A stretch of DNA of 63,361 bases, the filler included, from Rozella allomycis CSF55 (lineage: Eukaryota): the NCBI GenBank assembly GCA_000442015.1. It is 6 parts of 6 records of this genome, joined end to end, with 100 filler letters (N's around TTAATTAATTAA, not from the genome) between each part and the next. Parts side by side here need not be neighbours in the genome. Positions count along the whole stretch, not along the records: positions 35,963 to 50,261 come from KE561014.1; 5 more parts are not named here. One strand, given 5' to 3'. Position numbers and translations under genes: made by a program. The notes below the pieces were generated by a model that saw only the letters and a program-made list of their open reading frames with translations, was not told where the DNA came from and ran no database searches. Positions 2,893 to 59,248 of this stretch are shown one piece after another (position 1 is the first letter of the stretch; every line of letters starts with the position of its first letter).

Positions 2893-4855
2893 ATGACTTT
2901 TGTTACTTATTCTATTTCGCCTTCGATTCAAAAAAATAACAGAAAGCAAACAAACTCACAGGACTCTTTAACTGCCAGCAGTTGTACTCAAATGATTAAA
3001 CATATACAGCAAACTAGATTGCTTTGTGAAAGTCTAGTGCAAACAACATCATCATGGATAGATTCTATCAATAACAATTCAATGAATATTAATAAACTTA
3101 AAGAAAAGAATTTGGAGCAAACGAAATTGATTGAGCGTATTATTGAAACTCTTCAAAATAACCCGGAAAAGGTAGAAACAGTGCACGGGTTTGAAAGGTA
3201 TTCAATAACATTTCCAATAAAAAGATCAGAGCCAAAATATGAAGAATATTCATATTTTGACAAAATTCAAATGCCTGTAGGTGTAAAAGCGCTTTATGAC
3301 TCTTGTCATGGTTTACCAATTACCCGCCGTGGAAAAATTTGACCGCTTTCGCGAGGATGGTAAGGTATCAACAGAACTTTATAGCCATCCTCAATTTTTC
3401 TTTGAAAGTTGGAAATCTAGCATGTCGATACAACAGAGAAAAACCAAACGGGAGAGGATAACATCAGATGCAAGTAAAAGTACATCAATGAGGATTTCTG
3501 CAAACATCAAAGATTTAGAAATCAAGAAATACAGCTCGACGGGAGAATCCTATTCATTGAAAATTAAACCCTCTGAACCGAGAGATAGCATACTAATGAA
3601 TAGAGAAAATAGTAGCCCCAGTAAAATACCTGATAGCAGTCAATTATTCACTGCTCAAAATGATAGCCATGAAGAAAATATGACATCAATTAAAGTTAGT
3701 AATCTAAAGACGGAAGTAAATAGTGAGAAATTCGAGGCTACTGACAAGAGAAACATTGGTGATAGTATTTCTGGTTCAAGCATTAATGTTAATTACAAAC
3801 AAAATCATTTTAAGCGAGAGAATGTTCCAGTTAATAGACAGGAAGATCAACAAGAATATCAAAATTCATTAAAAACAGATCAATTTCAAGTACCCAATGC
3901 TAAAGAATCGGAATCCATTGCAGTTGCTCCAAGAAACAAATTGACAAGCCATCAATTTGATTATAATGAAGTAGGTCATGGGCTATTAAACAACGACTTA
4001 CTACCAAATACGAAATATAGTTCTCCTGAGATTGCAAAAGAAAATAACTTGAACATTGATAATAATTTGTATATAAATACTGATGACTATAATTCCATTC
4101 AATCTTTACATAATCAGGCTCTTAATCAGTTTCCCAATGAAACAAATTCAAATGAACCTGCTTACTATGATGAATATTCTTTCATTGACCACAACCCGAA
4201 ATTCGAATCTAGAACTGAACATAATGATCAAGATTTTTATAAAAACGAAGAAGACTTCACATCTACTGTCGAGAATCATGAAAATAACCTTGTCACAGAA
4301 CCCTACGAATATAATCATGAAATAACACTAATAAATGATTACAATCATACACAACAAGTAACCGGCGTTACTTTGGAATATCAAAATGAGACCTTCAGTT
4401 ACAACAACAATGAATCACAATACGAACACGAAAATAACTACAATGATTATGGGATCCGGCAAAATGTTAATGAAACATTTCAACAAAATGCCAGCTACAA
4501 TGCATTCCAAAATCAGCCAGACGCATTTCAAGAAAAGATCAATTACGAACAACCAGAAATCCCGACAATACTTACTAATAGTCACTACTATCAAACGTCT
4601 ATTTCCGAACTTCCAAATCCATTGGTCAACGATATTCAATATTCAGAAAACATAATCGAGGAAGCAAAAAGTATCGACCCTAGAAATAAGCTTTTGGAAT
4701 CAATTCGAGGCAAAAACATTCAATTGAAGAAAGTTGAACAACCTTCTCCAAAAACTAGTGAATCTAGAAAAAATGATGTTGCCGCTATATTAATGCGAAG
4801 AGCTGCGATGGAAGCAAGCGATTCAGAAGACGGATCCGATGAAGATTGGAAATAA
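2893..4855 (+). CDS. WAVE/SCAR-family Arp2/3 nucleation-promoting factor (frameshift at ~3313-3319)
   Basis: SCAR homology domain MPVGVKALYDSC..LP....RFREDGK...LYSHPQFFFESWK; C-terminal WH2 (RNKLLESIRGKNIQLKKV), central NDVAAILMRRAAME and acidic DEDWK. Confidence 0.85.
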
Positions 4856-4938: not shown

Positions 4939-6104
4939 TTATTTGAGAAATCCGATTAATGAGAAAACACACTCGATTGAAATAAGAATAATAATGGCCC
5001 ACTCCATGTTATCAGTATGTTTTTGACGCAAATGATTTTGAAGGACCTGGACTATTTCATTTGCATAATCAAGTTTCCTATTGAGCGTCATAGTGCGAGA
5101 TTTTAAATCGAGGACCCTTGAAACCTTATTATAAAGTTCTTCCAAGTTGGGTTCACTCCAATAAACATCAGGAGTTCCCAAAAATTCAGAATGTAAATTA
5201 AGATTCGCGCGGAAGGAAAGCAATTCACCAATTTTAGCAAGCGCCTGATAACGATTAAGAGTAATTCTGTTTTTGGCTTTCAACATTTCGGGAATTTCAC
5301 GGACACTTTCAATATATTTTTCGAGTAAAATTTCAAGGGCTCCTAGCTTCACTGAATTTGATATGCCATGAGACAGCGCCAACTTATTTCTGAAGATTTC
5401 GGCGCTTTCGGCATTCGAACAGAGAACAATTGAATCTCCACTCAAACCAGATGTACTATTTGATTGATTGGATCGTTTTACCCATTATTGGAAGGCTTGT
5501 ATGTCAATTCTTCAGTTTCAATTTCAGGGTACGAATCTATCTCGTGTTCTTTGATTTCTCTGAGCAGGCGCATAGATGTGGCATCATCTACATCCCACAT
5601 GATCATGGATCCCGCCTTAAAGTAAAAAACTTCACCTTGCGTTTCCTCTTTTGTCATTGGATCAAGAAGCTTAATATGATAAATGTCATTGAAGTATTGT
5701 GGAGAAAGAATAAAGTTCCGTTGTAAATAAGGTAAGAGAGTTTCAAAATTGTATTCCAAAGCTGTGCCAAATGCTTTTACCATTTTCAACTAGTTTTTGA
5801 ATTACGTTTTGAATACTTGGTCTGTTGATTCGACAGGGTTTGGGATTCTACGCTTTTTCGGTGTTTTCGTTTTAAATGTAGGAATTGGCAATTGTTGAGA
5901 AGTAATGTCTTGTTCATCTACATCTTCTACATTCACTCCCTTATTCTTTGGCAGAGAATATAATCGAATGGGAAGTAACGTTGACTTGGTACTTAAGGAT
6001 AATATGCTTACTGCTGGTTTATATATCTTTGGAATACTAGTAAGAGAGTAGTGAGTGCGATGAAATACTCTGGGTGAGAATATACTTTGGCAAATCTTAT
6101 TCAT
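4939..6104 (-). CDS. RMND1/Rmd1-like DUF155 protein, probably mitochondrial
   Basis: GEVFYFKAGSMIMW, KLALSHGISNSVKLGALE, GTPDVYWSEPNLEELY...LDLKSR...LNRKLDYA...MEWAIIILISIE; basic/hydroxyl-rich N-terminal presequence-like region; 2 introns. Confidence 0.85.
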
Positions 6105-16277: not shown

Positions 16278-17984
16278 CTAAGGTCTTGCCGGGGCTGGGG
16301 CAACTGCAAGGGTAGTGGAGAGGGCTGAGATTGGATGGGTTGTAATGCCAGGTTCATCTTGAAGGTCTAAATGGCCGTCTGATTTAGTTTTGGTTTTTGA
16401 ATGAACATAACGTGGTGGTCTTTCACCTTTAACAGCTGGGACATCGACAATGATTCTGGAAATGTCGGAATTGGGTGCAGCGTACATTGATTCTTGAAGA
16501 ATATGATCCTTTTAGTATATAAATATTTAATTACGACAATTCCTCTTAAGCCTCGAGCGCCAACCTTTTTCTTTATTGCGAGTCTAGCGATTTCGACTAG
16601 AGCGTCCTTTTCAAAAACTAGCTCAATGCCGTTGTGTTTGAATAGCGCTTTGATTTGCTTAACAACAGAGTTTTTAGGTTCTGTGAGGGCGTGAACGAGG
16701 TCATTTTCGCGTAATTCTTGAAGCACGGCCACTACAGGGATTCTCCCTACGAATTCAGGAATCAAACCGTAATTAATTAAATCGTCTGTTTCTAATTTGC
16801 TCATAATGAAATCATAATGAGTTTGTTCGGATACTTTTTCGTTTACAGTTTCTTTTTTCGCTGCAGCAAATCCAATTGACGTCGATGTGATTCTTTGAGA
16901 GATGACCTTGTCTAATCCAACAAAGGCCCCAGAGAGAACAAAAAGAATATTCGATGTGTCAATTTGATATTCTTCCGCTCTTCCATTTCGTTTAGATTTA
17001 TCTTGAACTGTAACGACGGTGCCTTCCAACATTTTTAATAAAGATTGTTGCACTCCTTCCCCTCCAACATCCCTGCTGTCTCTTATAGCTGATGGCCTTT
17101 TTCTGATCTTGTCAACTTCATCCAAAAATATAATCCCGTGCTCAGCCTTTTCAACATCAAAATCGCAATTCAATTGTCAATTATCAAAAATCTTACTTGC
17201 AAAAGTCTAAAAATTAATGATTCCACATCTTCGCCAACATAGCCAGCTTGTGTCAGCGTTGTGGCATCATTCATGGAAAATGGAACTTGAAGCATTTCGG
17301 CAAGTGTTTTCGCAATCAACGTTTTTCCAGACCCAGAAGGCCCTAAAAGTAAAACATTGCTTTTTTCTAAACACACTTTATCATTTTTAGCTGCATTCTC
17401 TCCTCTATTCTTGTTCATTTGCATTCGGCAGTAATGATTAAACACTGCAGTGGACAACACCTTTTTCCCATATTCTTGACCAATGACATGCTGGTCCAAA
17501 TATTCTTTAATCTAAAAATCCTATTTTGCCAATTATACCTGCTTTGGATTCTGAAAATGAGGTTCAGAGCCATTGATGCCATGGGAACCTCCACTTCCAT
17601 CATCAATAGTATAAACTTTTTCACACTTCTTGCATGCAAATGTAGCATTAGTTTGTGCTAAATAGTTTTTAATAAATTGAAGTACATGTAGTCAAGCTAA
17701 TAAGTGGCGAATCGCAAGAACGGCACCTAGGCCCCATTAAGAATCCTCTTCTCCCTCTTCTTTCTTTAACAAACATATAAAAATATCTTACTCTTGTCTA
17801 GAGTTAGAGGCGTAGTTAATTCGGTTAAGCGGAAATAGGAAAGTGGGACGATAGAGTTTTTGTTCTTATCGTCATCAGTTGGAGGTTTTCCAGACTTGTA
17901 GAAATGTTTTGAACTATGGAATGCAGAAATATTTACAAGTGTGGGTGTATGTTTGCATACAGGTCTGATTGCGCGAAGGAGCAT
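16278..17984 (-). CDS. CLPX: mitochondrial ClpX AAA+ ATPase
   Basis: [16 protein letters not shown] Walker [42 protein letters not shown]; presequence-like N-terminus and a CRSC...CKKC zinc-binding region. Confidence 0.95.
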
Positions 17985-19340: not shown

Positions 19341-21299
19341 TTATACCATGAAATGGCTTGCGGATTTCCTTTTTGTTAAAACAACGGCACTAGTGGCAGC
19401 AGCTCCTGCACCAAGAGCTCCAACTGATATTAGAGCAACATTAAGCGGAGTAAAAAATGGAATATCATCATCGTTAATGTTTTCTTTCTTGATATCTATT
19501 TGTTCTTTTGTGGCAAGGCTTTGTTGAACCTTGTTTTCGTCAATATTTCCGTTCTGTACTTCAATTTGTTTCTGTTCTTCAATAATTTTCTCTTGTTCCA
19601 CTAAAATTTCCTTTTCTGGTGCCATCTCCACCTGTTCTTGTGTTGCTTGTATTTGAGCAACATTTTCAGCTAATTGAACAGGTGGCATATCTTTTAGATT
19701 TTCAATTCCAAGGAGAATCTCTCTGTTTTCTTTATTTTTATTTTCCCTGGCGCTATCGTCAATAATGAATCTATTTTCGAATGCATCAGGACCTATTGAG
19801 TTTGAACTTTTAGTTTCTTTCTCAATTACTTCAATACGATTATTTCTTTTTGGAACTCTAGATTCCACAATTGGTGCATCTTCTAAGAAACCATTAATCT
19901 TATCTTCTATCATATCCGGAACAGCATCCGCAAAAGACTCCAATTTTTCCATCGCCATTTGAATAACACGATTGCCCGCCTTTTTCGCCAAACTCTCTAA
20001 AGAAGCGTAAATTTGACTCTTTGGGCTATCGTAATCATCGCCATAGTCATTGTCCATGTCGTTTCCTGCATTTTCAATAATCCATCGCGCCAAAGTCTCA
20101 ACATCTTCATTGTCTCTGTCCTCGTCTTCATCCTCATCTTCATCATTTACATTCTCTTTCACTGTCTCTTCTTCATCCCTATCTCCAAATATGAAAAAAA
20201 TTACTCAGTGTCCTCTGGACTAGGAAATGGTGGGATAACATTCCATATCCTGGATAGAATACCTTGAGGGGCGCTTTTATCTTCATCATCGTCATCATCA
20301 TCTATTATTAAACAAGAAAGATCATTTTGTACCCTCGTCATTGTCATGCGAATCGCCATTAGCCAGAAGAGACACTTTCAAGTCGTCCTTGAGCTGAAGC
20401 CCTTCAACAGTGTTAAATTCAGAAATGATTAAAGAGACAACTTTTTCATCCAACTTTTTTACAAGTAATCTCAGAGCCTTTTCCATTTTTGTTGTAAATA
20501 GATCAGAATCTGATTTCGCATATTCTACAGCATTTTCGGCGGCGACTTTGTACATATCAAAGGCCTTTCTACATTCAAAATAGATATTTGTCTTCTTGTC
20601 CTTGAATAACATTGACTTGTTTGAATTGCAATAATGCAAAACTTTCCTGGCAGCTGTTAGAATAATTTTAGCATCTGGAGATTGTTCAAAGATGTACCTG
20701 GGTGACAGATGTCGCGCGCCAAAAGTGATATCTTGCACATTGTACTCTGCGATCAAGATTTTCACACCATGGCTTGTATTGTCTACAACTTCTTTCACAT
20801 TCTTTTTTAATTCCCGTGCTCTTCTTTTCTCAAACTTTAACAAGGCAAGATCTTTTGTAACGGCTATTAGATTATTTGTTAGATCATTCAAGATCGGCAA
20901 CATTGAGCGAATATAGTTTTCAGTCGACCACATCTTCATTTCAAGAGAGGCGCTTCTATTGATGTATTCTTTAAAAACCTTTTTGCAATTACGGAAAGCT
21001 GCTTGATCAGCTTCTTTGACACTGTTTCGGATGTCATTGCAGAATGAGACAACATTATTAGCCACATTAATTACATTTGACACACTTTTCAGGTTTTCAA
21101 AACGATGTCTGTAACTTCCTACATCAGCTTTAAAGACAATGGCATTTTTCTTTGTATTTTTCTGACTGTCTAAATTCAATGCTGGAACATCCATGGCAGC
21201 AGGAACAAATCCAGAACCACCTACAATATCAAATTTTGTAGAATCAACAAAAATCACGTTCTGCGACAAGATCAAAACACAGATCAGAAATCGTAACAT
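19341..21299 (-). CDS. orphan type I membrane protein (signal peptide, acidic stalk, C-terminal TM)
   Basis: MLRFLICVLILSQ signal; poly-D/E region; FFTPLNVALISVGALGAGAAA TM followed by KRK; ORFs linked by short introns near 20165-20330. Confidence 0.65.
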
Positions 21300-34806: not shown

Positions 34807-35862
34807 TTATTTACTTTTTGTACAATGGGTGTGCCTGATTTTATTGGCTTCAACGATGCAATCTACAGAGTCTATTGTTTTTAAGCAAATATGGCAAAAA
34901 GTGTTTTGATTAATGTTTACATATGAAGCATGATACCTTTTGGAGTAATATTGTAATGAGAGTTGATTTAAACGTGAAGAATAAAGGTTTGATAGCATTT
35001 GTTGTTGACGTTGCTTTGACTGTTGAACTTGAACAATGTTTAGAATGAAAGATTTCAGTTGCAGAAGATTAGAATTTTCAGATAAATTTTGGATGATGAG
35101 AATTGGATCGATGTAGAGGATGTATTTTGAGAGGAATGATAAAAGATTATCTTGTGAACAAATTCTATAAAATTTGAGTATTTTGATTACTGTTGAATAT
35201 TGTTGAAAAAGTGATTTAGCAAATTGGGAACGTTTGAATTATTTGTGTTGATTAAATGATCTATTAAGAATTGAAACGTTTCTAAGTCTTTGTAAATGTT
35301 TAAAATTGTTGATAGACTTTGTTTGAGGTTGCCTTTCAAATTATCAAAAATATTTGACTTGTTACTTGAAACTGAAGGATTGAATTTTCAAAGTCAAATT
35401 CAATTGAATCAACAAAGTCTATTGAATAATCAAAGCAAACAGAAACAAGTTTGTACCTTTAAGTTTTAAAGAAAGGAAAGTTCATTACCTTTAATTTAAA
35501 GAGAAGTGAATTATATTACCTTTAACATGAAATAACTAAGCCCATTACCTTTAATGTAAAGAGAAGTGAAATATATTACCTTTAACATGAAATAACTAAG
35601 ATCATTACCTTGAATTACAATTATTTTCATGGGACTTTAAATAATCTAAAAAAGAAGGTTTGGGATTGTCCATTTCGATATATTCTTGTTCTTGAATTAT
35701 TCTAATCAAAATCAATTTACCAGGGTCAATCATACAATCTAATTTAGAAAATTCCAATAAAATGAAAAATAATTTCTTGAGAATAAAAAGATCTTTTTCA
35801 TTTAATTTCTTAAATTTTTTTGAATCAGATTTTGAATCTAGAAAGAATTCTAAAACTTTTAA
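34807..35862 (-). CDS. 3' part of Vps39/Vam6/TGFBRAP1-family protein
   Basis: C-terminal YVNINQNTFCHICLKTI......HTHC zinc region preceded by helical repeats (VIRIIQEQEY, RYKLV); 5' end in gap. Confidence 0.6.
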
Positions 35863-35962: not shown

Positions 35963-37639
35963 TTATTTTTGAAATTTCAATACTTTTTTTAGATTCAATA
36001 ATTTTTTCAATTTCATTTTCAAATTCTTTTAATTCTTTTTCAAAATCAAAATTCATGAAATTTAAAACTGATTTTTCTAAACTTTTTTTATATTCATTTA
36101 AAGATTCATTTTTAGCTAAATTTGAACTTGAAAGAAATCCTTCAGATTTTAAATTTGTTGTAAATTTCAAATTAAATAAATTCAAATATTTTTTAATTAA
36201 ATGTTTCTGCTGAATCAAAAATAAACTTGAAATATTCTCGTTAATCTTTTCTTCCAACTCTAACAACTTCTTTCTATAAATCTCTTCCTTATAGCGATGT
36301 GCACTCGATTTGAATTCTTCTATACATTTATTCTTATCAATTTCAAACTCTTCTTTAAAGTCTTCAATTATTTCTTCTTCTAAAATATTTCTCTTTGCAT
36401 GACACACCCTGGTAAATATTGACAATGAATTCTATTTTTAGATTCAGAAAATTACAAAATACATTCATGATTTCATCACATCGATATTGCGCTAACAATT
36501 CTTGCTGCGTTGGCAAATCCAAATCTTTATTACTCACAATTTTTTCCTTTTATTATTCACATCATTCATTACCCAAATCGCATCTGCATACTTTGAAAAC
36601 CCATCACTTGGGATATCATTCTTATATTCTTTATTCATCAAATACTTTGCATCTTGCTTGTTAAAAAACCTTTATAATTCCCACTCAACATTCAATACCA
36701 TTGTTTCAAGTTTAATACATCCTCATTAAATTTGTTCGCTTGCAGTCTCTTGTGAGCCAATCCAACAAACTTTAAATCAAACAAATCTGTAATCTCAGCT
36801 TCTCTAAACATTTCAGGCTAATTAATTCAACCCTGAAATCTTACTTTACTCAACCCTCTCCAAATTCTATCTAAATCACTCCTCAACGTATTCTCCAAAT
36901 TAATCAACGGAGTACTCCCTTCAAAATCACGTATCACAAAAAGTAACAATTTCTTTGCCATTCTTTCCCTCTCAAACACAAATCTTACCCAGGCTGCTGG
37001 AACAATTGCAAATGCACTTCAAAAACAGTCTTCAATAGTCCCATGCTAGCTCCATTATACAGTCCCACCGAATGCTCCCATAGATTAACAATCAAAATTT
37101 GAGAAACCGAAAGCGAAAACAATGCACTCTTTCGTTCAAAATCCTTTTAAATTTTAACAATTATATTCACTTGGTTTTCTCCTCGCTCACGACCGTCTGT
37201 CCCCTCCACATCCATAATCAACACCGATCTATCTTCATCCGCAGGCGACATCCAGATCCCTATCTCACTCCACAACTCTCAATACCTATCCCAACCAAAA
37301 ATTCACTCGTACCTTTAGTCGTCTGCTGGCGCCTCGTATCATCCATCTCCTGAAACGCAGTCCCAAACAATCGATTCAACAATGTACCTGCTCACCCACA
37401 CACCCAAAATTTACCTATTAAAACCACCCCCAATACGTACCTATATATTTTATAAACACTTTAATCACTTTTTCCAGTACTCTGCGCCCCAAATACCGCA
37501 ACAACAGTATAGTCAAACCCAATATCACTTATCTGCCACTTTTCCCTCACATAGCTCTCAAGATTTTGGCTATTTTTATGAAAATCGCTGGTTACTTGAA
37601 TTTTTGCTCATCGTCAATCAACTGAATTTGATTTGTCAT
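35963..37639 (-). CDS. SEY1: Sey1/RHD3 ER-fusion GTPase (3' end in gap)
   Basis: After splicing: [73 protein letters not shown]. Confidence 0.95.
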
Positions 37640-37737: not shown

Positions 37738-39366
37738 TTATTTTTTAACGTCTTCCTCTTCATTTTCTCTGTTCTCATCTTGCCTTTCCAGAACTAATAC
37801 GCCACATCTGGATGTCAAAATGTTGAAATCACTGTCCTTGACTGCAATGCCCACCAAAGGCTCCTTCAATAATCTGCAAAACTTTTGTTTAACAACTATA
37901 AACACTTACATAAACAGGCTCAACAATCGGAATCAGATCTAACTGCATTGGCTGGATGATATCCTCTATCTGTCCAAAGCCCCGCTCAGAAGCCTCTTCA
38001 TTCACCAATGATCTCCGTTTCTCTCTCTTGCCTAGCATACTTACAGTGGAATGCTACTAGATCGTAGACGAAACAGTTACCGATCGAGGGCGTCGCAAAT
38101 TCTCTCTTGAAAACTCCCAAAAACATGCAAACCCGTCGTGTCCAACACTGACAAATCTGTAAAGGTTCTGTCCACAGGTTGCGGGATCAAAGGCAACTTG
38201 AGAGACAAATGATTTGTGGCCTTGGCAGCGCGCTACAAATGTGCGCTCTTGGATATCAAGAATCGTAATACAATCGTCTTCACCGGCAAGCTATCATTAC
38301 ATCGTGCTTGAATTACTAGAATATATTTGCCATCAAAACTCCATGTTGCTGACAAGTATCCGCCAAAGAAGCTCTTCATACTGAAACAGAGTTTATGTGT
38401 GGAATGCTCAATGATTCTAACTATGCCGCTCTTTGAAACGATTGCTAAATGCTCGTAATCTGGCGAGAAAAATAATTCTAATGTTCAAATAAATAGATCT
38501 TTACTTTGCGACTCACTGGAACTGAATTGATAGATTGTTTCTACAAAACCACCAACAGGTAGTTGTCTCACTTGGAACCTGGAAATGTTTTCTCAAAATG
38601 TTACATTGATTTCGGAACTCGTGTTTCTGATATCGCCACCAGATTTTGCAATGATCTACAATTTAAGAACGCGACTATTCCGTCATTGAAGGCAGCTGCA
38701 AAACGTTCTTCAGAAGCTGGTAGCCATCTCACAGAAGACACGGGTGATTTAGATAAATGATGCTTTAAAACTTATAAAAAATGTTTTTACCGATTTATTG
38801 TGACGTACAAAATAGTTACTCAATGGACAATAAACTAATATTTCGCCATTAGACAAACCAATTAAAATATCCAAAGATGAAGCATTTTTTGTGGTCAAAT
38901 TTAAATCATGGCATGTCGGCGAGCATTTCGCGAAATTGATCATGACCAAGGGATCAGAGCTAGGGAGGCAAATATCTACCATCAAAAACGATTTGCTAGC
39001 ATGAATAAGAAATCCGCTGCCTTTGTAGCTCCCAGATTTTAAATCATCTTTAAACTGAGAGTTCATGGTAAACTTGTCAATTAGAGATGATGGACGAAAC
39101 AATCCTTCAACGCCGTAAAGAGTTGTGTATGCCTGTTTCTTTTGAAACGAGAATATGGAGTTAGAGTTTTCATCCTGTATCACGAATTCGAGTAATGTAG
39201 CATAATCCTTTTCGTCGTTTATTGTACTCACCTGCTTTGGGGTTGATACACTATACTCGGATATTGCTGAGAGCATGTATGAATGCAGTGGATAGTTAAA
39301 CTGGATTTGGGTATTGTATTCCACTGTCTGGTTATTCCAATCTACCGCAAAAAGTGTACTGGCCAT
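37738..39366 (-). CDS. WDR20/DMWD/CreC-type WD40 protein (DUB cofactor)
   Basis: PTCHDLN...LDILIGLSNGEI, VSSVRWLP, SFFGGYLSATWSFDGKYI, GEDD, RCQGHKSFVSQVAFDP, RFVSVGHDG. Confidence 0.85.
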
Positions 39367-39589
39367 ATGCGAAATTTCAGATTAGGGAAACATGACATTG
39401 ATGTGCTGCATATTTTTATCTTCTTATTAATCTGCATATTCCATAGAAGTATTTAGAAGGTATTGATCTCAAAAGAGTTAAGCTACTTCTTGTGAATATA
39501 AAGGATAAGCCTATTGCGGATAGTTTTGATTGCGCAGGTCATATTATAAATATAATTTGGGCATTTATTGATTTTCCAAAGTGCTCGAG

Positions 39590-40903
39590 TCAAGAATAAT
39601 TGTTTTCCGTGNTCGAGTCAAGTATAATTGTTTTCCGTGGATGTATATCCCACAAGAAGCCGTAAAAAGTATCTAGTGAATGTAATACTCTATGTTCACC
39701 TTTTGTGCCATGCTGAAACTCATCAAAGTGGGCTTCTGCTAAATTAAGTCGCGGGTGAAAATTTTCATCATGCAAAAACAACTGATGAGTTATTTCATGT
39801 TTTGGAAGCGCGAAATACTTTTGCGCTTCACTAATACTCAGTGAATATGAATACACTATGTAATTTTTATCAAATGTGTTAATGAACGCGTACGATAAAA
39901 CACAGGCACTGCGAGTACATTTCGTTTCCCAATCAACTGCACTGTCATAAATAAAACCCCCAAGAAATGTGTAACCAAACGAGAATATGTAACTGTGAGG
40001 GATGTTGTTCTTTAGAACCAAGGGGAAGTCCAAAAAATATAGGGACATACTAATCGGTTGGCTCGCCCTGTACAGTAATACTCGCCCTTGTGCCATCGCT
40101 CCTAATTCATCCATTAGTATTTTATGAAAGATGCTTTTCTCTTTAAACATTGTATGTGATCTTTTGGTCTCTTCAACATGCAAGTATGGATCAATCCCAA
40201 ATAGTGATATCGATCTGGGCCAACAATTAATCCAGGCTTCGGTATTCGAGTCGGCCAAACATATTTCATACTGGTCAATAAAAACTTCGAGATCCTTGAC
40301 TGCAAATAATGATTCATGTATTAATTTTGACCGCTCATCTAAATAATGACCATGGTTATCAAAAGATTTCGCAAATGAAAATATTCTTTCAATCATCAGT
40401 CTCGCTTTCTTACTCAAAGTATATTCAAGGTTTTCTATTAGTTGCTTTAATGAATAATTTTCAAAAGATGTTGCCAAGCGAAATAGGACATCTTCCTGAA
40501 TCATCTTATCCCAATTTTCGTTGTCCATACAATCACATCCTACATGATCGCATGAACTTCTCAACTTGTATGCATCAAGTAATTGCTGGCGTACAATATT
40601 TTCTCTCGCCATTGAATACAAAAACATGCTGGATTCACAATCCGCGATGGTGGGTCGTACGTAAGAAACTATGGTGAACAACTCATAGTAAATGGATGGT
40701 AGCTTCAGTGGATAGATCTTGTAATGTCTGTTGTAGATGCCGGGTAATTCTATCGAAGCGAATTCTTGAAATATTCGTTGTTGGTCATCTTGGTAGAAAG
40801 TGTCATTCCTGACCCAGAGAGGGTCTATGACGATAGCATGGGTACTAACTCCCTGACATATATCTTGAGGTACTATCAGTAGTACTGAATACAAGGATAA
40901 CAT
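39590..40903 (-). CDS. intronless secreted orphan protein, possible ADP-ribosyltransferase-like C-terminal domain
   Basis: 437-aa ORF, hydrophobic N-terminus, VLLYRA ... FSFG..FLGG...D...AC...Y ... ENFHPR. Confidence 0.65.
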   Translation of the reverse strand: MLSLYSVLLIVPQDICQGVSTHAIVIDPLWVRNDTFYQDDQQRIFQEFASIELPGIYNRHYKIYPLKLPSIYYELFTIVSYVRPTIADCESSMFLYSMARENIVRQQLLDAYKLRSSCDHVGCDCMDNENWDKMIQEDVLFRLATSFENYSLKQLIENLEYTLSKKARLMIERIFSFAKSFDNHGHYLDERSKLIHESLFAVKDLEVFIDQYEICLADSNTEAWINCWPRSISLFGIDPYLHVEETKRSHTMFKEKSIFHKILMDELGAMAQGRVLLYRASQPISMSLYFLDFPLVLKNNIPHSYIFSFGYTFLGGFIYDSAVDWETKCTRSACVLSYAFINTFDKNYIVYSYSLSISEAQKYFALPKHEITHQLFLHDENFHPRLNLAEAHFDEFQHGTKGEHRVLHSLDTFYGFLWDIHPRKTIILDSXTENNYS

Positions 40904-40929
40904 CCATCCATTGAGGATCTGAATCTTAA

Positions 40930-41195
40930 GTTACGCTAGACAATGCCCTGCCAAGGTCATTGACGATAGCATAGAGTTCACAACCTTAATAGAGCTATTA
41001 AGGTTTCTCTATTGATAACTAACATAGATTTCATACTCATTCATGAAGACCCAATATGGATAAGTTATGCTAGACAATGCCCTGCCAAGGTCATTGACGA
41101 TGGCATAGAGATCACAACCTTAATAAAGCTATTAAGGTTCTTCTAGTGATAACTAACATATATTCAATACTCATTGATGAGGACTCAATATGGAT
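40930..41195. repeat. diverged tandem duplication of ~135 bp
   Basis: gctagacaatgccctgccaaggtcattgacgat...caatatggat occurs twice with scattered substitutions. Confidence 0.9.
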
Positions 41196-42959
41196 CTCTT
41201 AATATGATAGATCTATAAATAGGATACTATTTATAGAAAGAATCAACCATATAAAACTCCAAGGAGATATCAATAAATAGAACGGAGATAATCCATTCTC
41301 AATCGATATCTGTTTTTTACTTTTTATCTTACGATTTACTATCCGATTTACGAGGATTAAGGTTCTATGAGCGCATGGAGCGACAGAAAGGCCAGGAAAA
41401 TTTCCTTAAGATTTCTCGGACTTTCGTATGTAGCTGGACATGTCCACTGTTACCAGAATGTTCCATTTTAGATCTTCTATTGATGCTGCACCAGTACATT
41501 GATAGAGTTCGGCCGTACAATAACTCTGCGTGGAGATCGATGCCTGCTAAGATTCCTGAAAATCTACTGACTATAATGGGCACATACACATGCGACCCCA
41601 TCGTTGAATAATTCCAGAATAAAAAGACCAAGATCAGGTGGAAAACGTGCATGGTGGCGTGTAAAAATGTGATTGACCTTTTATGATCGAACTTTGTTAC
41701 TTTAAACTTCCGCAAAATCTACATTCATTTGAGTAAATTCCGGCTTATTATTTAGTCAGGTAGTCAAGAGATCCAGCAAAAATATCGATGCTACGGGTAT
41801 AACACAGCCGGCGCCGCAAGATGACTATATGAGAAACCAAGGCATAAATGCGACCCTTGGAGTAGATAGAAAAGATTTTATCACTGCTCTAAAGAAGTCT
41901 ATTTATTGATTATTTATCAATTTACTTTAGATGGCGATGAATATTTTTGTGCTACTATGATTTACACAGCGACAACATTACGAGCAACGTAATAAGACCA
42001 TAATTGTGGATGTTAAGATTAAGGTATGGAAATGACAAAATTTTTCGATAAATCTATTGGCAATGGTTTTCGTGATATCCCAATTGGATTTTGTTGCAAG
42101 CTTTCGTGCATTTTTTTATAGTTAGAGCTTTTCAAATGTATNTTTTTTTTATATTAGAGCTTTTCAAATGTATATTTGTTTCTATCTCTGAAGATGTTGT
42201 AAGGCTAAGACGCACGGCAAGATTTCCCGGTAGCCATATTGATGATAAAAAAGTAGCTGAAATAATTTTAGAATTGCAACGCGGACATTATTCTATTTGA
42301 TGCAACTTTGGCATTTTCTTCAGTGTACAAAACTGATATCATATTAATCAAAGCATTTTGAGCCCGCCAAACTCATTGAATGATGAATCTACTTACAAAA
42401 ATAATCATTTGCCAAAATTGGATGATTACCATATAGAATTAGTCATTTTTTGTTTTCAAAGAAAAGAAATAACAATTCTTATTATTTAAGGTTCCATATG
42501 AAGTTTAACTCAAATGACTACACTTTTAGATGAATGGATTTTTTCTGGTGATGAAGAGATATTTGATTTGGGTATGGACCCCTCAGTCACATTGGTAATT
42601 ATTTGGGAATTGATTTTCCTAGATTTAAATTGAGCGCATTGATTCCAGTTCACCATACATCTTTAATCGTAGAAAAATTTATGAATAAATTATATTTGAT
42701 ATTGTGCCGTTAGTCATGGTTTAAAATCGTCCATTATTTTACGGAATGTCATGGAATGATCAAAATTTCATTAATTGTTTAGGCTATTCCAAAACATCTC
42801 GATATAACTAAAAAATCATTAAACGTGATGAAATTGGACGGTCAAGTTTTAATACAATATGTAAAATGTGAGAGAAAGATACATTTTAGGCAATTCTTGA
42901 TTACGAATTTTTGTAAAATTATTTTTAACAACGTGCCATTTCGACTACGCCACTTTTTA

Positions 42960-44191: not shown

Positions 44192-46225
44192 TTATTTATC
44201 TTTTTTCTCCTCTTTCTCATTTGTCTTTGTTTTTTCCAAGAAGTGTTCGATGATAATGTCTTCTTGCTTTCTAGCTGCCATGTAAGTAATGTCATTTTTA
44301 AGAAAAGTTTTTATTCTTCTAACAGTTGTCATCAACTGTGCTTGTGCCAATGTTGACCTTACAGCCTTTCCGTTCAAGCCAAGTAAAGTAGAATGACCGA
44401 GTACTTTACGCATTTCTATTGAGACCAAGTCTGTAAAAGCAATACCCATAACTGAAATATCCTGCTTCTCGATTTTAACTTGATTTGAAGAACTTGATGA
44501 CGATTCTTTGCAATCAAAGCTTCTATAAAGCATGCAATTACCACATCTTTCAACAGGTGTAATGTATCGTCGATTATGATCACCATAATAACGATAGGAA
44601 CTAACCATCAACGATTTAGATTTAACACTTGACGTTGTGTCACCATTAGTAACAGCCAAAGAACAGCTTTGATCTTCCGCACAGTTTCCTAAAGGATGTT
44701 TAACACCTTTTTTTTGTTGCACTTCGTGCCCAAAGTTTTGCTGAACTATTTTTGGCAACAAAGTATCTTTCTGCAAAAATTTGCTTTCGCTGACAAAAAA
44801 GGTTTCGTCTGAGTTACATTCTAAAATCAATGCATGCATGTCTGTGTTTGTAAAAAGGCTGTCGCGGGCTTTAAAACTCATTCCCATATATAATCTATCG
44901 TCATTTATATCATCATTGAAAGAGACTGAAAGAACATATTGGTCTAAAGGTTTTTTTACTTGTTTCAACCATTTGTTGACACATTGTGCAAAACGAGGAA
45001 GTTTTTCATCAATATATCGGAAAAAGTTTATAAAATCTTCACTTCTTTCGCGAAAAAGAATATTTTCCTTGGAAAAGATGTTAGAATAGAAACTGTCAAT
45101 TACTTTTTCGCTAGAGAATTGTAAATTTCCTTGATTCAAAATAGTGTTCTGGGTTCCGTAGCTTCTCAAAAGGTCACAAAAGCTATTTTCATTTAGCACA
45201 GATGAACTGAATAAAATATCATTGAACAACTTATCAGCTACCAAGGGAGTAATAGAAAACGGTGATAATGTAAATGAATAACTTGTCGTGTGGGCCCAAA
45301 TTTGGGGATTTCCGCCGTTCAGTTCTTTAACCAATNCCCAAATTTTGGGATTTCCGCCATTCAGTTCTTTAACCAATTCTAAATACTCATTTAATTCAAC
45401 AAAAGGATTATTATGGTCATAATGAATATCAACCACGTACACTTTACCATCATTCTTACCTTTTATCAATGGAACTTGAATCACCGGAATTCTGAATGCT
45501 GTGCCATCTTTTCTTGGTGCTGAAACGGTAAGTTTCTTAGGATCAGAGAAAGGAAGATATTCGTTAAATTCTTCACTTTCACTAGGGCCGATAACTAAAA
45601 TCGGCGGTGCTATTTCACTAGATCCTTCAAGCTGATCAACAAGGGAATGATAAACTATTTCAATACTAGACATTCTATTTTTAACGGACTTGCAATGAAC
45701 CATATCTTTGATTAGCTCGGAATTAATAGTAAATCCATTCCTCAATACGCACTCCCCGCGGATATTCTGAACTATGGTGTTTTTGTTATTCACATCATCT
45801 ACAATTTTTTTTGCCAACTTTTTGAACTCCTCAAAAGTTCCTTTTTCCATCTTTTTACCACTTTTGTTCTTTATGTTTTGAAAAGTTTCTCCATATGACA
45901 TATAATTATTCTCAATTACCCAGTTCATGCATCTTTCGTTCGCCGCCTTTCGTTTCTCATTATCTATACCCGAACACGGGTTTATAAAAGATCCCATTTT
46001 GTCCTTTAAAATGTCTGCGACTTCAGAAATGTTATCCTGCTCAAATGCGACTTCCTTTAAGAGAAATTTGGGTTCAGTATTAAAAACAGGAAGATCAAGA
46101 TTTCGAATGGTTCGCAAGCTCTCTTCACTGACAGACGAAAGTTTGAACGGTTGCGTTGATCTAATTTCAACTGGCAAGGAGGATACAGTCAAGATGCCAC
46201 TGAGAACATAAAACACGTGCTTCAT
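44192..46225 (-). CDS. secreted protein with C-terminal zinc-dependent deaminase-like motif (CAE...CxxC)
   Basis: Signal peptide MKHVFYVLSGILTVSS; HPLGNCAED at ~44672-44698 and RCGNC at ~44534-44548. Confidence 0.65.
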   Translation of the reverse strand: MKHVFYVLSGILTVSSLPVEIRSTQPFKLSSVSEESLRTIRNLDLPVFNTEPKFLLKEVAFEQDNISEVADILKDKMGSFINPCSGIDNEKRKAANERCMNWVIENNYMSYGETFQNIKNKSGKKMEKGTFEEFKKLAKKIVDDVNNKNTIVQNIRGECVLRNGFTINSELIKDMVHCKSVKNRMSSIEIVYHSLVDQLEGSSEIAPPILVIGPSESEEFNEYLPFSDPKKLTVSAPRKDGTAFRIPVIQVPLIKGKNDGKVYVVDIHYDHNNPFVELNEYLELVKELNGGNPKIWXLVKELNGGNPQIWAHTTSYSFTLSPFSITPLVADKLFNDILFSSSVLNENSFCDLLRSYGTQNTILNQGNLQFSSEKVIDSFYSNIFSKENILFRERSEDFINFFRYIDEKLPRFAQCVNKWLKQVKKPLDQYVLSVSFNDDINDDRLYMGMSFKARDSLFTNTDMHALILECNSDETFFVSESKFLQKDTLLPKIVQQNFGHEVQQKKGVKHPLGNCAEDQSCSLAVTNGDTTSSVKSKSLMVSSYRYYGDHNRRYITPVERCGNCMLYRSFDCKESSSSSSNQVKIEKQDISVMGIAFTDLVSIEMRKVLGHSTLLGLNGKAVRSTLAQAQLMTTVRRIKTFLKNDITYMAARKQEDIIIEHFLEKTKTNEKEEKKDK

Positions 46226-50568: not shown

Positions 50569-52581
50569 GTTGTTATAGAAACTGGACTTGATGAATAACG
50601 AACAATCCATTAACTTCAACGTACCAGCAAAGTTCTTAAAGGCATCTCAGGCCAGAATGCAAAAGATGAAACAGAATAGTTTAGAGAGAGATAAGTCTAT
50701 GGTTCCTCCCAAATTGGAACCATTACCAAAGGCTCAAGAAGGACCAAAAGGCCCCAATATGTCCATACCCTCTACTTCAAATATATCANTGTCCATACCC
50801 TCTACTTTAAATATATCAGATAAGGTCTTTGAAAGTAATCCAAAAAGTAAGCCTGTGACCGCCCCATCAAAAACTGCCTTGGAAATTGATCGCATAAGAA
50901 AGAAACGTGAGTTGAGACGCCAGCAACAACAAGAGATTAAGGACATGAACAAACTGATAGATCCGGAAACAAAGGATATTAAAAAATACAAGTCAATCAT
51001 CGCTGCTTTTGTCGCCGGCATACCAGCTGGTGTATCCAATTCAAAGAAATCGTTATCAGAAATCAGCCAAGAAGCAGCAATCAGAGTGTGCGTACGAAAG
51101 AGGCCTATTAATGAAAAAGGTATCTTTTTTTAATGAATTACAAAGAAAGCAGTTTGTCCAATTTTGACGTTGTTACGTGCAGATCTAATGCAAGCCGCAA
51201 CGCGCTGATGTATGTGCACGAACCCAAAGTCAAGTTTGACATGTCAAAAGACATGGAACATCATCAATTTTGCTTTGATAATGTCTTTGATGAAACCAGC
51301 ACAAATGAGGCAGTCTATTCTTCCACTTTAAAGACAATTCTGCCACAGCTACTTAACCAAGGCAGAATAAGCTTTTTCGCGTATGGTCAAACTAGTTCAG
51401 GTACACTGACAAGCCTATTCATATGTAGGAAAAACTCACACAGTCTTCGGTAATCAATCGAATCCCGGTGTTTATCACTATGCATGCAAAGACATTTTCA
51501 AATTGATTAAGAATGACAAATCATTATTTGTGACAGTATGTTTTTATGAGATCTACGGCGGAAGAATTTATGATCTATTTCAAAACAAGGCCCGGTTGCA
51601 GTTGTTAGAAGATGGAAAGGGTGATATAAAGATAATGGGTTTGCAAGAAATACAAGTTGGTAGTTATGAAGACATGATAAGACTTATTGACTATGGTTTT
51701 TCAACTCGTACTACAGCATCTACCTCTGCAAATGATGAATCATCACGAAGTCACGCAATATTGCAGATTAGTATTCGTCAGGGCGATGGGTCCATAGTTA
51801 AAGGAAAGTTCTCTTTGATTGACCTTGCCGGATCTGAAAGAGCTTCAGATGTCAATCACACTGACCGGCAACGCAGAATCGAGGGCGCCGAGATCAATAA
51901 AAGTTTGCTCGCGTTGAAGGAATGTATAAGAGCCTTAAACAAGAGACAGAGTGGTGCCCATATTCCTTTTAGGGCCAGTAAGCTAACTCAGGTTTTACGC
52001 GACTGCTTTATTGGAAACAATTCACTTACAGTAATTCAATGTCAAATCCTATATAGGTCATGATAGCAGCGGTAAGTCCAGCCTCCGATTCCTGTGATCA
52101 CACTCTGAATACACTTCGTTACGCTGATAGGGTAAAAGAATTGAAGCCGGAGAAGAATTCCAAACTAAAAGTAAATACAAAGAGGTCGATATCATGCTCC
52201 AATGTAAAAGAAACTAATATAAGTTAATAGATGCTTCCAAGTCCGCTTATTTCACCCGAAGATGAAGATATTGAAAAACTCCATGAAAGCTTGAATACTC
52301 CCTTTGAACTTTTAAATCTTCATAAAACTGCAAATGCCATAGTTTATGAGCACGAAAATTTGACGCGAAAGCACGATGAGGCACTCAAAGAACAGACTTT
52401 AATATCACAAACAGAAAAAGAGCTATTGGATGAAGTTGACATTGACATATACGTTGATGGATTAGAGAAATGCATTAATGATAAAATGGAGATTCTTGGT
52501 GATTTACTAAGAAATGTACATCAATTGAGACAAGATTTATCACACGTTGATACAAATCCAGATATTAATTTGGAAGATTAG
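50569..52581 (+). CDS. kinesin-13 family motor (KIF2/KIF24-like), 5' end uncertain
   Basis: [87 protein letters not shown]. Confidence 0.95.
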
Positions 52582-57904: not shown

Positions 57905-59248
57905 TTATTGTTCAACCGCGTCTGTTTTTTTATGATGATCTTCGTGTATACAATATTCATAGTCAAAATAGAAATCCATCCAAATTTCATGCAACAAATA
58001 TATAATCCCAAGAAACTTTTGATGAACATAATTACTTTTTTCTTCATCACTGGAGATGCCAGAACTTAATCGAAAGTGCTCAACAATTTTACGGGAAAGG
58101 TATTGAATGTTTTGATTTGTAATTTCCAGGACTTTCTTTAATGACTCTTCTTTTAACTCATAAGCTGTCTCATTGTTGTATTCAAGAATTGACAGAAGAG
58201 ACTTAGCAGAGTTTTGTATGATGTCATTAAAATTATTTAAAATAGATTTCATTTCTTCTCCTTGCTGAGAATGCAACTCTTCTTTGAATTCAAGAACGGT
58301 CACGTGAGGCTTTAAATCGGAACCACACGTACAAAAGTGGTAGGAATGTATTAAGAGAACCAAAATTATACAAGTAGGTGGAACAAACTTACGTGGAAAA
58401 AGCATCTGTTGGTGGCTTAACTCTTACCTGGATCGCTAATACAAGGGGGTCAGTAGATAAAACATTTAAAATAAATCTATGCTGTTCTTATTTTCTACTT
58501 TAATTAAAAGTACGACTCATAGTTTAGGTAAGTTAAGAAAAAGGTGGCTTAGAAATGATTGTTCTAATTTTTCTTTTCGCTTATCTATCAAATGTACTGG
58601 CCTTNTACTCTTAAAATCGGAAACCAGAATTTTTCTTATAAAAAAGATCCAGGACGTCTGTTTTTTTATGATGATCTTCGTGTATACAATTTTCATAGTC
58701 AAAATAGAAATCCATCCAAATTTCATGCAACAAATATATAATCCCAAGAAACTTTTGATGAACATAATTACTTTTTTCTTCATCACTGGAGATGCCAGAA
58801 CTTAATCGAAAGTGCTCAACAATTTTACGGGAAAGGTATTGAATGTTTTGATTTGTAATTTCCAGGACTTTCTTTAATGACTCTTCTTTTAACTCATAAG
58901 CTGCCTCATTGTTGTGTTCAAGAATTGACAGAAGAGATTTAGCAGAGTTTTGTATAATTTCATTAAAATTATTTAAAATAGATTTCATTTCTTCTCCTTG
59001 CTGAGAATGNTCTCATTGTTGTATTCAAGAATTGACAGAAGAGACTTAGCAGAGTTTTGTATGATGTCATTAAAATTATTTAAAATAGATTTCATTTCTT
59101 CTCCTTGCTGAGAATGCAACTCTTCTTTGAATTCAAGAACGGTCATGTGAGGCTTTAAATCGGAACCACACGTGCAAAAGTGGTAGGAATGTATTAAGAG
59201 AACCAAAATTATACAAGTAGGTGGAACAAACTTACGTGGAAAAAGCAT
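57905..59248 (-). CDS. small secreted orphan protein (~166 aa), present as repeated, probably allelic copies (57905-58405; 58611-59248)
   Basis: MLFPRKFVPPTCIILVLLIHSY hydrophobic leader; near-identical copies separated by single Ns. Confidence 0.6.

Follow-up and report, generated by a model that had tools for sequence, protein, structure and literature searches.

The stretch of DNA analysed here (the window) comprises 63361 bases from Rozella allomycis CSF55, a fungus-like parasite whose lineage is sister to Microsporidia. Its contigs are strung together by N44-TTAATTAATTAA-N44 linkers; the genetic code is standard and the GC content is ~30-38%. Our subject is a small group of intervening sequences within it that appear to be stacks of abutting ultra-short introns, above all a 53-nt sequence in the gene for the dynamin-like GTPase RHD3/Sey1 (hereafter Sey1). 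This gene lies on the minus strand of a 14299-nt contig (35963-50261), where it begins with an ATG at 37639 and is truncated by the contig end at 35963, and once nine intervening sequences are removed it presents a 1351-nt open frame. Exon 5 alone scores 79.9 bits against the Pfam family RHD3_GTPase (gathering cutoff 42.4), of five exon pieces run against Pfam four match the same family in collinear order, and a 51-residue exon is 100% identical to the NCBI entry 'RHD3/Sey1 domain-containing protein, partial [Rozella allomycis CSF55]'. As to composition, the sense strand of the gene (35963-37639, minus) is strongly depleted of C, with 6-12% C per 200 nt, and along the gene G drops from 38% to 10% while A climbs from 27% to 50%; the introns of the 5' part are G/T-rich like the gene that surrounds them, and introns elsewhere in the window are AT-rich.

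The 53-nt sequence sits inside the switch-1 coding region of Sey1 and interrupts a Gly codon that corresponds to position 34 of the RHD3_GTPase profile. Exon 3 ends with ...ACT AAA G at 37313 and exon 4 begins with GG ATC TGG ATG at 37259. In an alignment of Sey1 proteins (A1) the motif TTKGIW is unbroken in 10 of the 11 other members, the remaining one, a Neolecta model, having 2 extra residues. Since the flanking exons are contiguous on the Pfam profile and the homologues are unbroken, exactly 53 nt must leave the mRNA, which is to say that both units of the stack must be absent from it if the conserved TTK-GIWM stretch is to be made. The sequence-only reading from which we started had divided the 53 nt between TTK and GIWM into segments of 27 and 26 nt at an internal AG/GT (the slash marks a junction); its coordinates proved exact, and both Pfam and alignment A1 agree with them. 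The inner AG/GT, at 37287-37284, places an acceptor and a donor side by side, and each of the two units, being of the form GTA...TAG, has the GT-AG ends of an intron. Removing the 53 nt as a whole restores the conserved protein; this says nothing on whether the units exit separately.

That reading also counted the 53-nt site as the third such case within ~2 kb, and the other two were found: an 81-nt stack of three units in the same gene and a 152-nt array of five units in a second, unannotated gene. The array is on a different contig from Sey1, joined to it only via the N-linker. The 81-nt stack cuts the P-loop codons of Sey1 (GK-S/T), and its removal regains the ...STGKSTLLN... of the other Sey1 proteins in the alignment; its units start with GTG, GTA and GTA and end with TAG, TAG and CAG, respectively. 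In the array all five units abut, each of them reading GTAAT...TTAAAG. Across the three stacks the inner junctions are AG/GTA in seven of seven cases, with T or A right before the AG, and those of the two Sey1 stacks are TAG/GTA in three of three. Positions of these features are collected in Table 1.

Table 1. Sey1 gene, stacked intervening sequences and the exons that flank the 53-nt stack (window positions)
Feature	Position	Strand	Details
RHD3/Sey1 dynamin-like GTPase gene	35963..37639	-	N-terminal ~450 codons; 9 intron sites
Exon 3, 75 nt	37313..37387	-	Pfam RHD3_GTPase positions 10-33; ends with base 1 of the split Gly codon
Unit 1 of 53-nt stack, 27 nt	37286..37312	-	GTACGA...GGATAG, direct reading
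Unit 2 of 53-nt stack, 26 nt	37260..37285	-	GTATTG...AGATAG, direct reading
Exon 4, 89 nt	37171..37259	-	Pfam RHD3_GTPase positions 35-67; starts with bases 2 and 3 of the split Gly codon
81-nt stack	37388..37468	-	28 nt (37468-37441) + 26 nt (37440-37415) + 27 nt (37414-37388)
152-nt five-unit array	35457..35608	-	29+31+29+31+32 nt; neighbouring contig, inside unannotated gene

The setting in which these stacks occur is one of very short introns. A gene finder was built for the window, with intron units restricted to 20-36 nt and genes scoring at least 15 kept, and it called 43 other introns, all of them 20-33 nt long with a mode of 26 nt (17/43), an upper bound that is partly built in because the finder was limited to 20-36 nt. 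Besides the 17 introns of 26 nt, those of 27, 28, 29 and 31 nt number 7, 4, 5 and 4, respectively. Subject to that bound, the earlier statement that other introns in the window are single units holds for the 43. In the window only three verified intervening sequences exceed 33 nt, those of 53, 81 and 152 nt, and all three split fully into GT..AG units of 26-32 nt. The suggestion that longer introns are built from modules is therefore borne out as far as architecture goes, and in the 152-nt case the building was visibly by tandem duplication. In Rozella allomycis, then, introns follow an ultra-short regime in which 26 nt is the mode and GTA...WAG the pattern. A permissive variant of the finder, with the intron limit set at 18-130 nt, put forward 16 longer candidates (39-129 nt), and not one of them splits into units. 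Its proposals at 2843, 17196, 17770, 17997, 18164, 18817, 14941, 52171, 36718 and 36537 are either false joins of separate genes or better read as introns of 26-31 nt; the introns of a ClpX gene, for example, are instead 28, 28, 27, 26 and 26 nt long.

The two units of the 53-nt stack resemble ordinary introns in length (27 and 26 nt) and in their end signals. With a weight matrix for the end signals, trained on 40 single introns, unit 1 scored -0.81 and unit 2 scored 1.51; 5 and 13 of the 40 single introns, respectively, scored lower. Against 3026 GT..AG segments used as decoys the units stood at the 85th and 94th percentile. As regards a branch point, the profile of the 40 introns has a weak A-rich 3' region only.

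How often such stacks would arise by accident was estimated from shuffles in which the outer GT and AG were fixed and the interior was shuffled, a full split being scored either loosely, into GT..AG units of 20-34 nt, or strictly, with a GTR start and a non-G at -3 demanded in addition. With matched composition, the 53-nt sequence split fully in 3663/20000 loose and 589/20000 strict shuffles, and with dinucleotides kept in 417/2482, the 81-nt sequence in 433/20000, 30/20000 and 31/1732, and the 152-nt sequence in 0/20000, 0/20000 and 0/3755. Because the 53-nt sequence is G/T-rich, its signal is modest taken alone. The 53 nt by themselves are only weakly to moderately beyond chance, whereas the pattern of the three stacks together is not chance. 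Sites of the form GTA..WAG/GTA..WAG number 7 in the whole window, compared with a mean of 1.4 and a maximum of 6 in 200 Markov resamples; four of the 7 belong to the array, one is the 53-nt site, one is a false positive in a kinesin gene and one is ambiguous. Among individual look-alikes, 51092-51145 (+), which would divide into 28+26 nt, reads as kinesin motor coding sequence, 55179-55118 (-) reads as coding for an EF-hand-like stretch, and 5699-5761 (+) and 19649-19712 (+) lie opposite predicted genes; 3172-3224 (+), of 26+27 nt, is inside an open frame and ambiguous. Relaxing the junction scan of the window added only further look-alikes, which either read as coding or face the wrong way.

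The presence of the stack in the genome could be checked in contigs of four runs (X1, X2, X5 and X6), all of which are DNA contigs and so silent on splicing, over a stretch outside which the 152-nt array lay. No intron-skipping joint was found at any intron in the contigs of these runs. Contigs of X1, X2 and X5 span the 53-nt site with base differences only, and since none of the three shows an insertion, a deletion or a joint there, the 53 nt are present in the DNA. The same comparison revealed a second haplotype. Among the best-supported 40 of 320 differences, 6 lie within the 53 nt, and the splice dinucleotides, outer as well as inner, are free of them; 2 fall in unit 1 and 4 in unit 2, none at the ends of unit 2. 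Were unit 1 read as coding, its two differences would be non-synonymous (codons read by eye), and the two in exon 4, from the same 40, are synonymous third positions. The haplotype differences within the 53 nt fit intronic, unconstrained sequence, small as their numbers are.

We favor the possibility that a spliceosomal GT-AG intron of 27 nt and one of 26 nt, both ultra-short and autonomous, make up the 53 nt, with a zero-length exon between them, and that they are removed unit by unit; judging from the sequence, we would put the probability of this at roughly 55%. A plausible scenario is that the Rozella spliceosome operates by intron definition within a narrow length window (~20-33 nt, mode 26). 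With such a window, each GTA would be paired with the nearest downstream TAG and units would leave singly, whichever of them went first. The junction left by the first removal would still carry an intact 5' or 3' site, and removal in one step from the outer sites would give an identical mRNA; as every route would yield the same message, the arrangement would be fail-safe. Stacks might then come about when entire units are copied in tandem, of which the 152-nt array is an example, or when a further unit is gained at the AG/GT boundary of one already present. If the units are indeed spliced separately, they would represent a natural case of quantised intron length and offer a handle on how the spliceosome measures the distance from the 5' site to the branch or 3' site, and intron DNA would here be seen growing by duplication of whole, still-functional introns. 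A stronger proposal, which we put forward tentatively and with less confidence, is that the spliceosome has a hard limit near 33 nt and that longer sequences are tolerated only as arrays of mini-introns with zero-length exons, removed singly and growing by tandem duplication. Were this so, arrays would be a distinct, self-propagating way to add intronic DNA, and standard gene finders would systematically mis-model the genes affected.

Several points weigh against separate removal and against a hard limit. A mid-point AG/GT appears by chance in 18% (loose) or 2.9% (strict) of 53-nt shuffles. The ceiling of 20-33 nt is partly the product of a finder that allowed 20-36 nt only, and the sample is 63 kb of the genome. 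Longer candidates are still standing at 3283 (82 nt), 19390 (126 nt), 18229 (39 nt), 47127 (105 nt), 46337 (48 nt), 29696 (82 nt) and 60000 (45 nt), and with these seven in place a strict length ceiling is unproven. None of the 40 single introns scores as low as unit 3 of the 81-nt stack, and the weakness of intron end signals leaves the weight matrix with little power to discriminate. Nor is the haplotype argument strong, there being a chance of ~0.2, by hand calculation, that 6 changes would miss 12 signal positions.

Foremost among the alternatives is that the 53 nt are one ordinary intron, spliced in a single step from 37312 to 37260, and that the inner AG/GT is either a chance occurrence or an unused relic. 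Most fungi splice introns of 50-150 nt without difficulty, one-step removal gives the same mRNA, and the loose and strict shuffle counts given above for the 53 nt show that a split of this kind can come about by accident. We nevertheless consider a single step less likely. Our reasoning for this is that: (i) no other verified intron in the window exceeds 33 nt, as against 43 single introns of 20-33 nt; (ii) the 81-nt sequence (0.15-2.2% by chance) and the 152-nt sequence (0/20000) also decompose fully; (iii) the inner sites fit the consensus no less well than real sites and would, therefore, compete with the outer ones and (iv) the units have diverged beyond detectable similarity with their junctions intact.

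The gene model deposited at NCBI (P0001) embodies a further alternative, in which unit 2 alone is an intron and unit 1 is either coding, as an insert of 9 residues in switch 1, or an often-retained alternative intron. P0001 matches our intron calls at seven of the nine Sey1 sites and differs at the two stacks only. At the 53-nt stack it translates unit 1 as the 9-residue insert and removes unit 2, and unit 1 does lend itself to being read in this way, as its 27 nt are a multiple of 3, contain no in-frame stop and keep the frame. The insert is, however, absent from all 11 other Sey1 proteins in alignment A1, where it would fall inside an invariant stretch; with the insert left out, the Pfam profile is contiguous; each of the two haplotype differences in unit 1 would alter an amino acid; and the GTA...TAG ends and the length of unit 1 are typical of an intron. 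At the 81-nt stack P0001 has a 90-nt intron (~37480-37391) by which P-loop residues are deleted, which makes it an unreliable guide at the Sey1 stacks. Insert and P-loop loss are both unique to P0001 among the 12 aligned Sey1 proteins. We therefore regard a coding or retained unit 1 as improbable; the NCBI Sey1 model, judged against its homologues, is evidently wrong at both stacks. Whichever splicing route is taken, the Sey1 model of the reference genome has lost P-loop residues and carries a spurious insert in switch 1. As the Sey1 model is wrong and the gene that holds the array is in no protein database searched, stacked mini-introns defeat current annotation, and genes mis-modelled in this manner matter for phylogenomic and comparative work in which Rozella serves as the sister of Microsporidia.

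That the stack is an assembly artefact, absent from the DNA, is very improbable and for the 53-nt site largely refuted (the array lay outside the stretch covered by the runs), for although the draft assembly does hold small false tandem duplications by single Ns (28, 32 and 42 nt), 37260-37468 and its surroundings are free of Ns, the X1, X2 and X5 contigs run through the site without insertion, deletion or joint, and the two units of the stack are not copies of one another.

With regard to the origin of the stacks, the 152-nt array is the most informative. Its units 1 and 3, and likewise its units 2 and 4, are near-identical (0/2000 shuffles reached the observed score), unit 5 is similar to units 2 and 4, and Tandem Repeats Finder (TRF) reports a repeat with a period of 60, 2.2 copies and a 91% match. 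From this relatedness we infer that tandem duplication copied entire intron units, ends included. The similarity expected of tandem duplicates, detected in the array, was not detected in the 53-nt pair (p=0.35), and the Sey1 units in general show no similarity beyond composition (10 pairs, p=0.13-0.88). The interiors of the Sey1 units have diverged, yet their inner junctions keep the consensus, as would be expected if the junctions are used. Should these units have begun as duplicates, the decay of the interiors and the keeping of the junctions would point to such use. A scan of metagenomes with P0001 gave 110 pattern matches and no relatives, and a scan with alignment A1 gave 80 Sey1 loci, the best at no more than 52% identity and none close to Rozella. 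In 80 of the 80 loci the tblastn match runs uninterrupted over both stacked sites; 34 of them are on contigs of at least 10 kb, and many of the loci may be transcript-derived. The lack of any interruption in these loci hints that the Rozella introns at both stacked sites in Sey1 are lineage-specific gains.

There is precedent for several elements of this arrangement. Zero-nucleotide-exon recursive splicing at ratchet points has been described for Drosophila Ubx and other genes (bioRxiv 10.1101/006163, PMC8605326). As in the fly, an AG/GT is juxtaposed inside the intervening sequence with zero exon bases, and stepwise removal is possible. In recursive splicing in the fly, however, host introns span tens of kilobases and removal proceeds 5' to 3' via a regenerated donor, whereas the Rozella stacks consist of complete introns of 26-32 nt, measure 53-152 nt in all and would be taken out stepwise, presumably, in either order. 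The very long host intron of fly and human recursive splicing has no counterpart here (53, 81 and 152 nt), and the presumed reason for the arrangement in Rozella is an upper length limit and not great length. Dual-specific AGGT splice sites, which can be used as 5' or 3' sites, are known, among others, from the tandem array of human UBC (PMC10809524). Here too an AGGT can act as acceptor for what lies upstream and as donor for what lies downstream, and the enrichment of such sites in tandem repeats matches the 152-nt array, but the UBC sites bound coding ubiquitin monomers and give rise to variable isoforms, while the Rozella segments are non-coding and all of them must go.

Stwintrons (spliceosomal twin introns), found in filamentous fungi and in Lipomyces (PMC7138796), are likewise fungal complex intervening sequences made up of more than one U2-type unit, and they are removed by consecutive reactions. 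The external intron of a stwintron has its donor, acceptor or branch element split by the internal one, which fixes the order of removal. The Rozella stacks are not stwintrons in this sense: their units abut, and whichever of two is taken out, a whole GTA...TAG unit is left behind and no splice signal is newly formed. Ultra-short introns as such have been described in Paramecium and Nyctotherus (~25 nt), in Stentor (15-16 nt) and in myxobolid myxozoans and Dicyema (22-27 nt) (PMC13644364, PMC5014332), and Rozella shares with these regimes the narrow range of lengths near 26 nt, the reduced GTA...AG signal and the A-rich 3' ends. The available text of the survey of ultra-short introns (PMC13644364) mentions neither abutting or stacked introns nor Rozella, that of a paper on ciliate introns (PMC13685798) makes no mention of tandem introns, and the word 'intron' does not occur in PMC5701793. 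Two introns of ~30 nt in a Rozella S23 gene are noted in passing in the available part of PMC6349667. To the extent that the available text of recent surveys goes, then, the Rozella regime with its mode of 26 nt is not listed in them. No description of stacked ultra-short introns was found in a literature search that covered work on Rozella introns, stwintrons, zero-length exons and abutting introns. Within the bounds of that coverage, zero-length-exon or recursive splicing and tandem duplication of introns are known kinds; what appears to be new is their occurrence in a genome of ultra-short introns and in arrays of up to five units.

The gene in which the array lies begins, as far as it is present, with an exon A (35862-35609, minus strand) that is open from the contig edge. 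Removal of the 152 nt joins this exon in frame to one without an ATG of its own, downstream of which follow two 26-nt introns and a last exon of 119 codons ending at 34807. The result is a four-exon open frame (34807-35862, minus) with a C-terminal Cys/His motif, which may resemble that of Vps39/Vam6. When stop-free paths through the locus were enumerated (up to 8 introns of 18-45 nt each), 111 were obtained. The five-unit path is unique among the 31 paths with seven introns in having six introns of canonical pattern, and there are 3 paths with fewer introns, each with only three such introns. Codon scores favour the chosen frames, weakly so for the last two exons. No Pfam family was found for the four exons, bar one sub-threshold match to SAPI, no database protein of 64-207 aa or 208-2000 aa contains the last exon, and there was no match in Atlas. 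The model of this gene follows from frame logic only, and the gene seems to be unannotated.

Two further intervening sequences in the window deserve mention in connection with intron length. In the tail of a WD-repeat gene, a 54-nt GT..AG candidate (38023-38076, minus) has no split into units and is perhaps not an intron. The gene may stop at a TAG at 38057, with a separate small open reading frame (ORF) starting from an ATG at 38038, and the other haplotype alters the third base of a GTAAGT internal to the candidate. In a ClpX-like AAA+ gene, a 26-nt intervening sequence (17171-17196, minus) is needed for the frame and starts with GTAAG but ends with TG. The stretch that is kept when these 26 nt are removed is, we assume, conserved in ClpX. 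Use of the next AG would give a 50-nt intron at the cost of 8 residues, and the coordinates of the Pfam AAA_2 match fit the 26-nt reading without proving it. The TG end is explained either by selection of a non-canonical 3' site according to distance or by a wrong base in the draft assembly.

Comparison with the other runs also brought out features of the assembly elsewhere on the Sey1 contig and beyond it. At single Ns at 39612, 42142 and 45336, contigs of other runs skip an adjacent 28, 32 and 42 nt, respectively. Short direct duplications flank single Ns at 39585-39623, 42110-42143 and 45294-45360 and near 50789; these are probably artefacts of haplotype merging, and one of them puts a false repeat of 14 residues into an ORF of 686 codons. 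Between 40733 and 41686 word depth in two runs reaches up to ~82000, compared with ~250 around it, and contigs of three runs skip a 590-nt piece of this region (40795-41384). The region may represent a mis-join, or else a repeat or mobile element of very high copy number with presence/absence variation; Rfam has no match to it or to any other part of the window. Finally, identical 54-nt stretches at 58076-58129 and 58812-58865 (+), 736 nt apart, point to local duplication of a larger segment.

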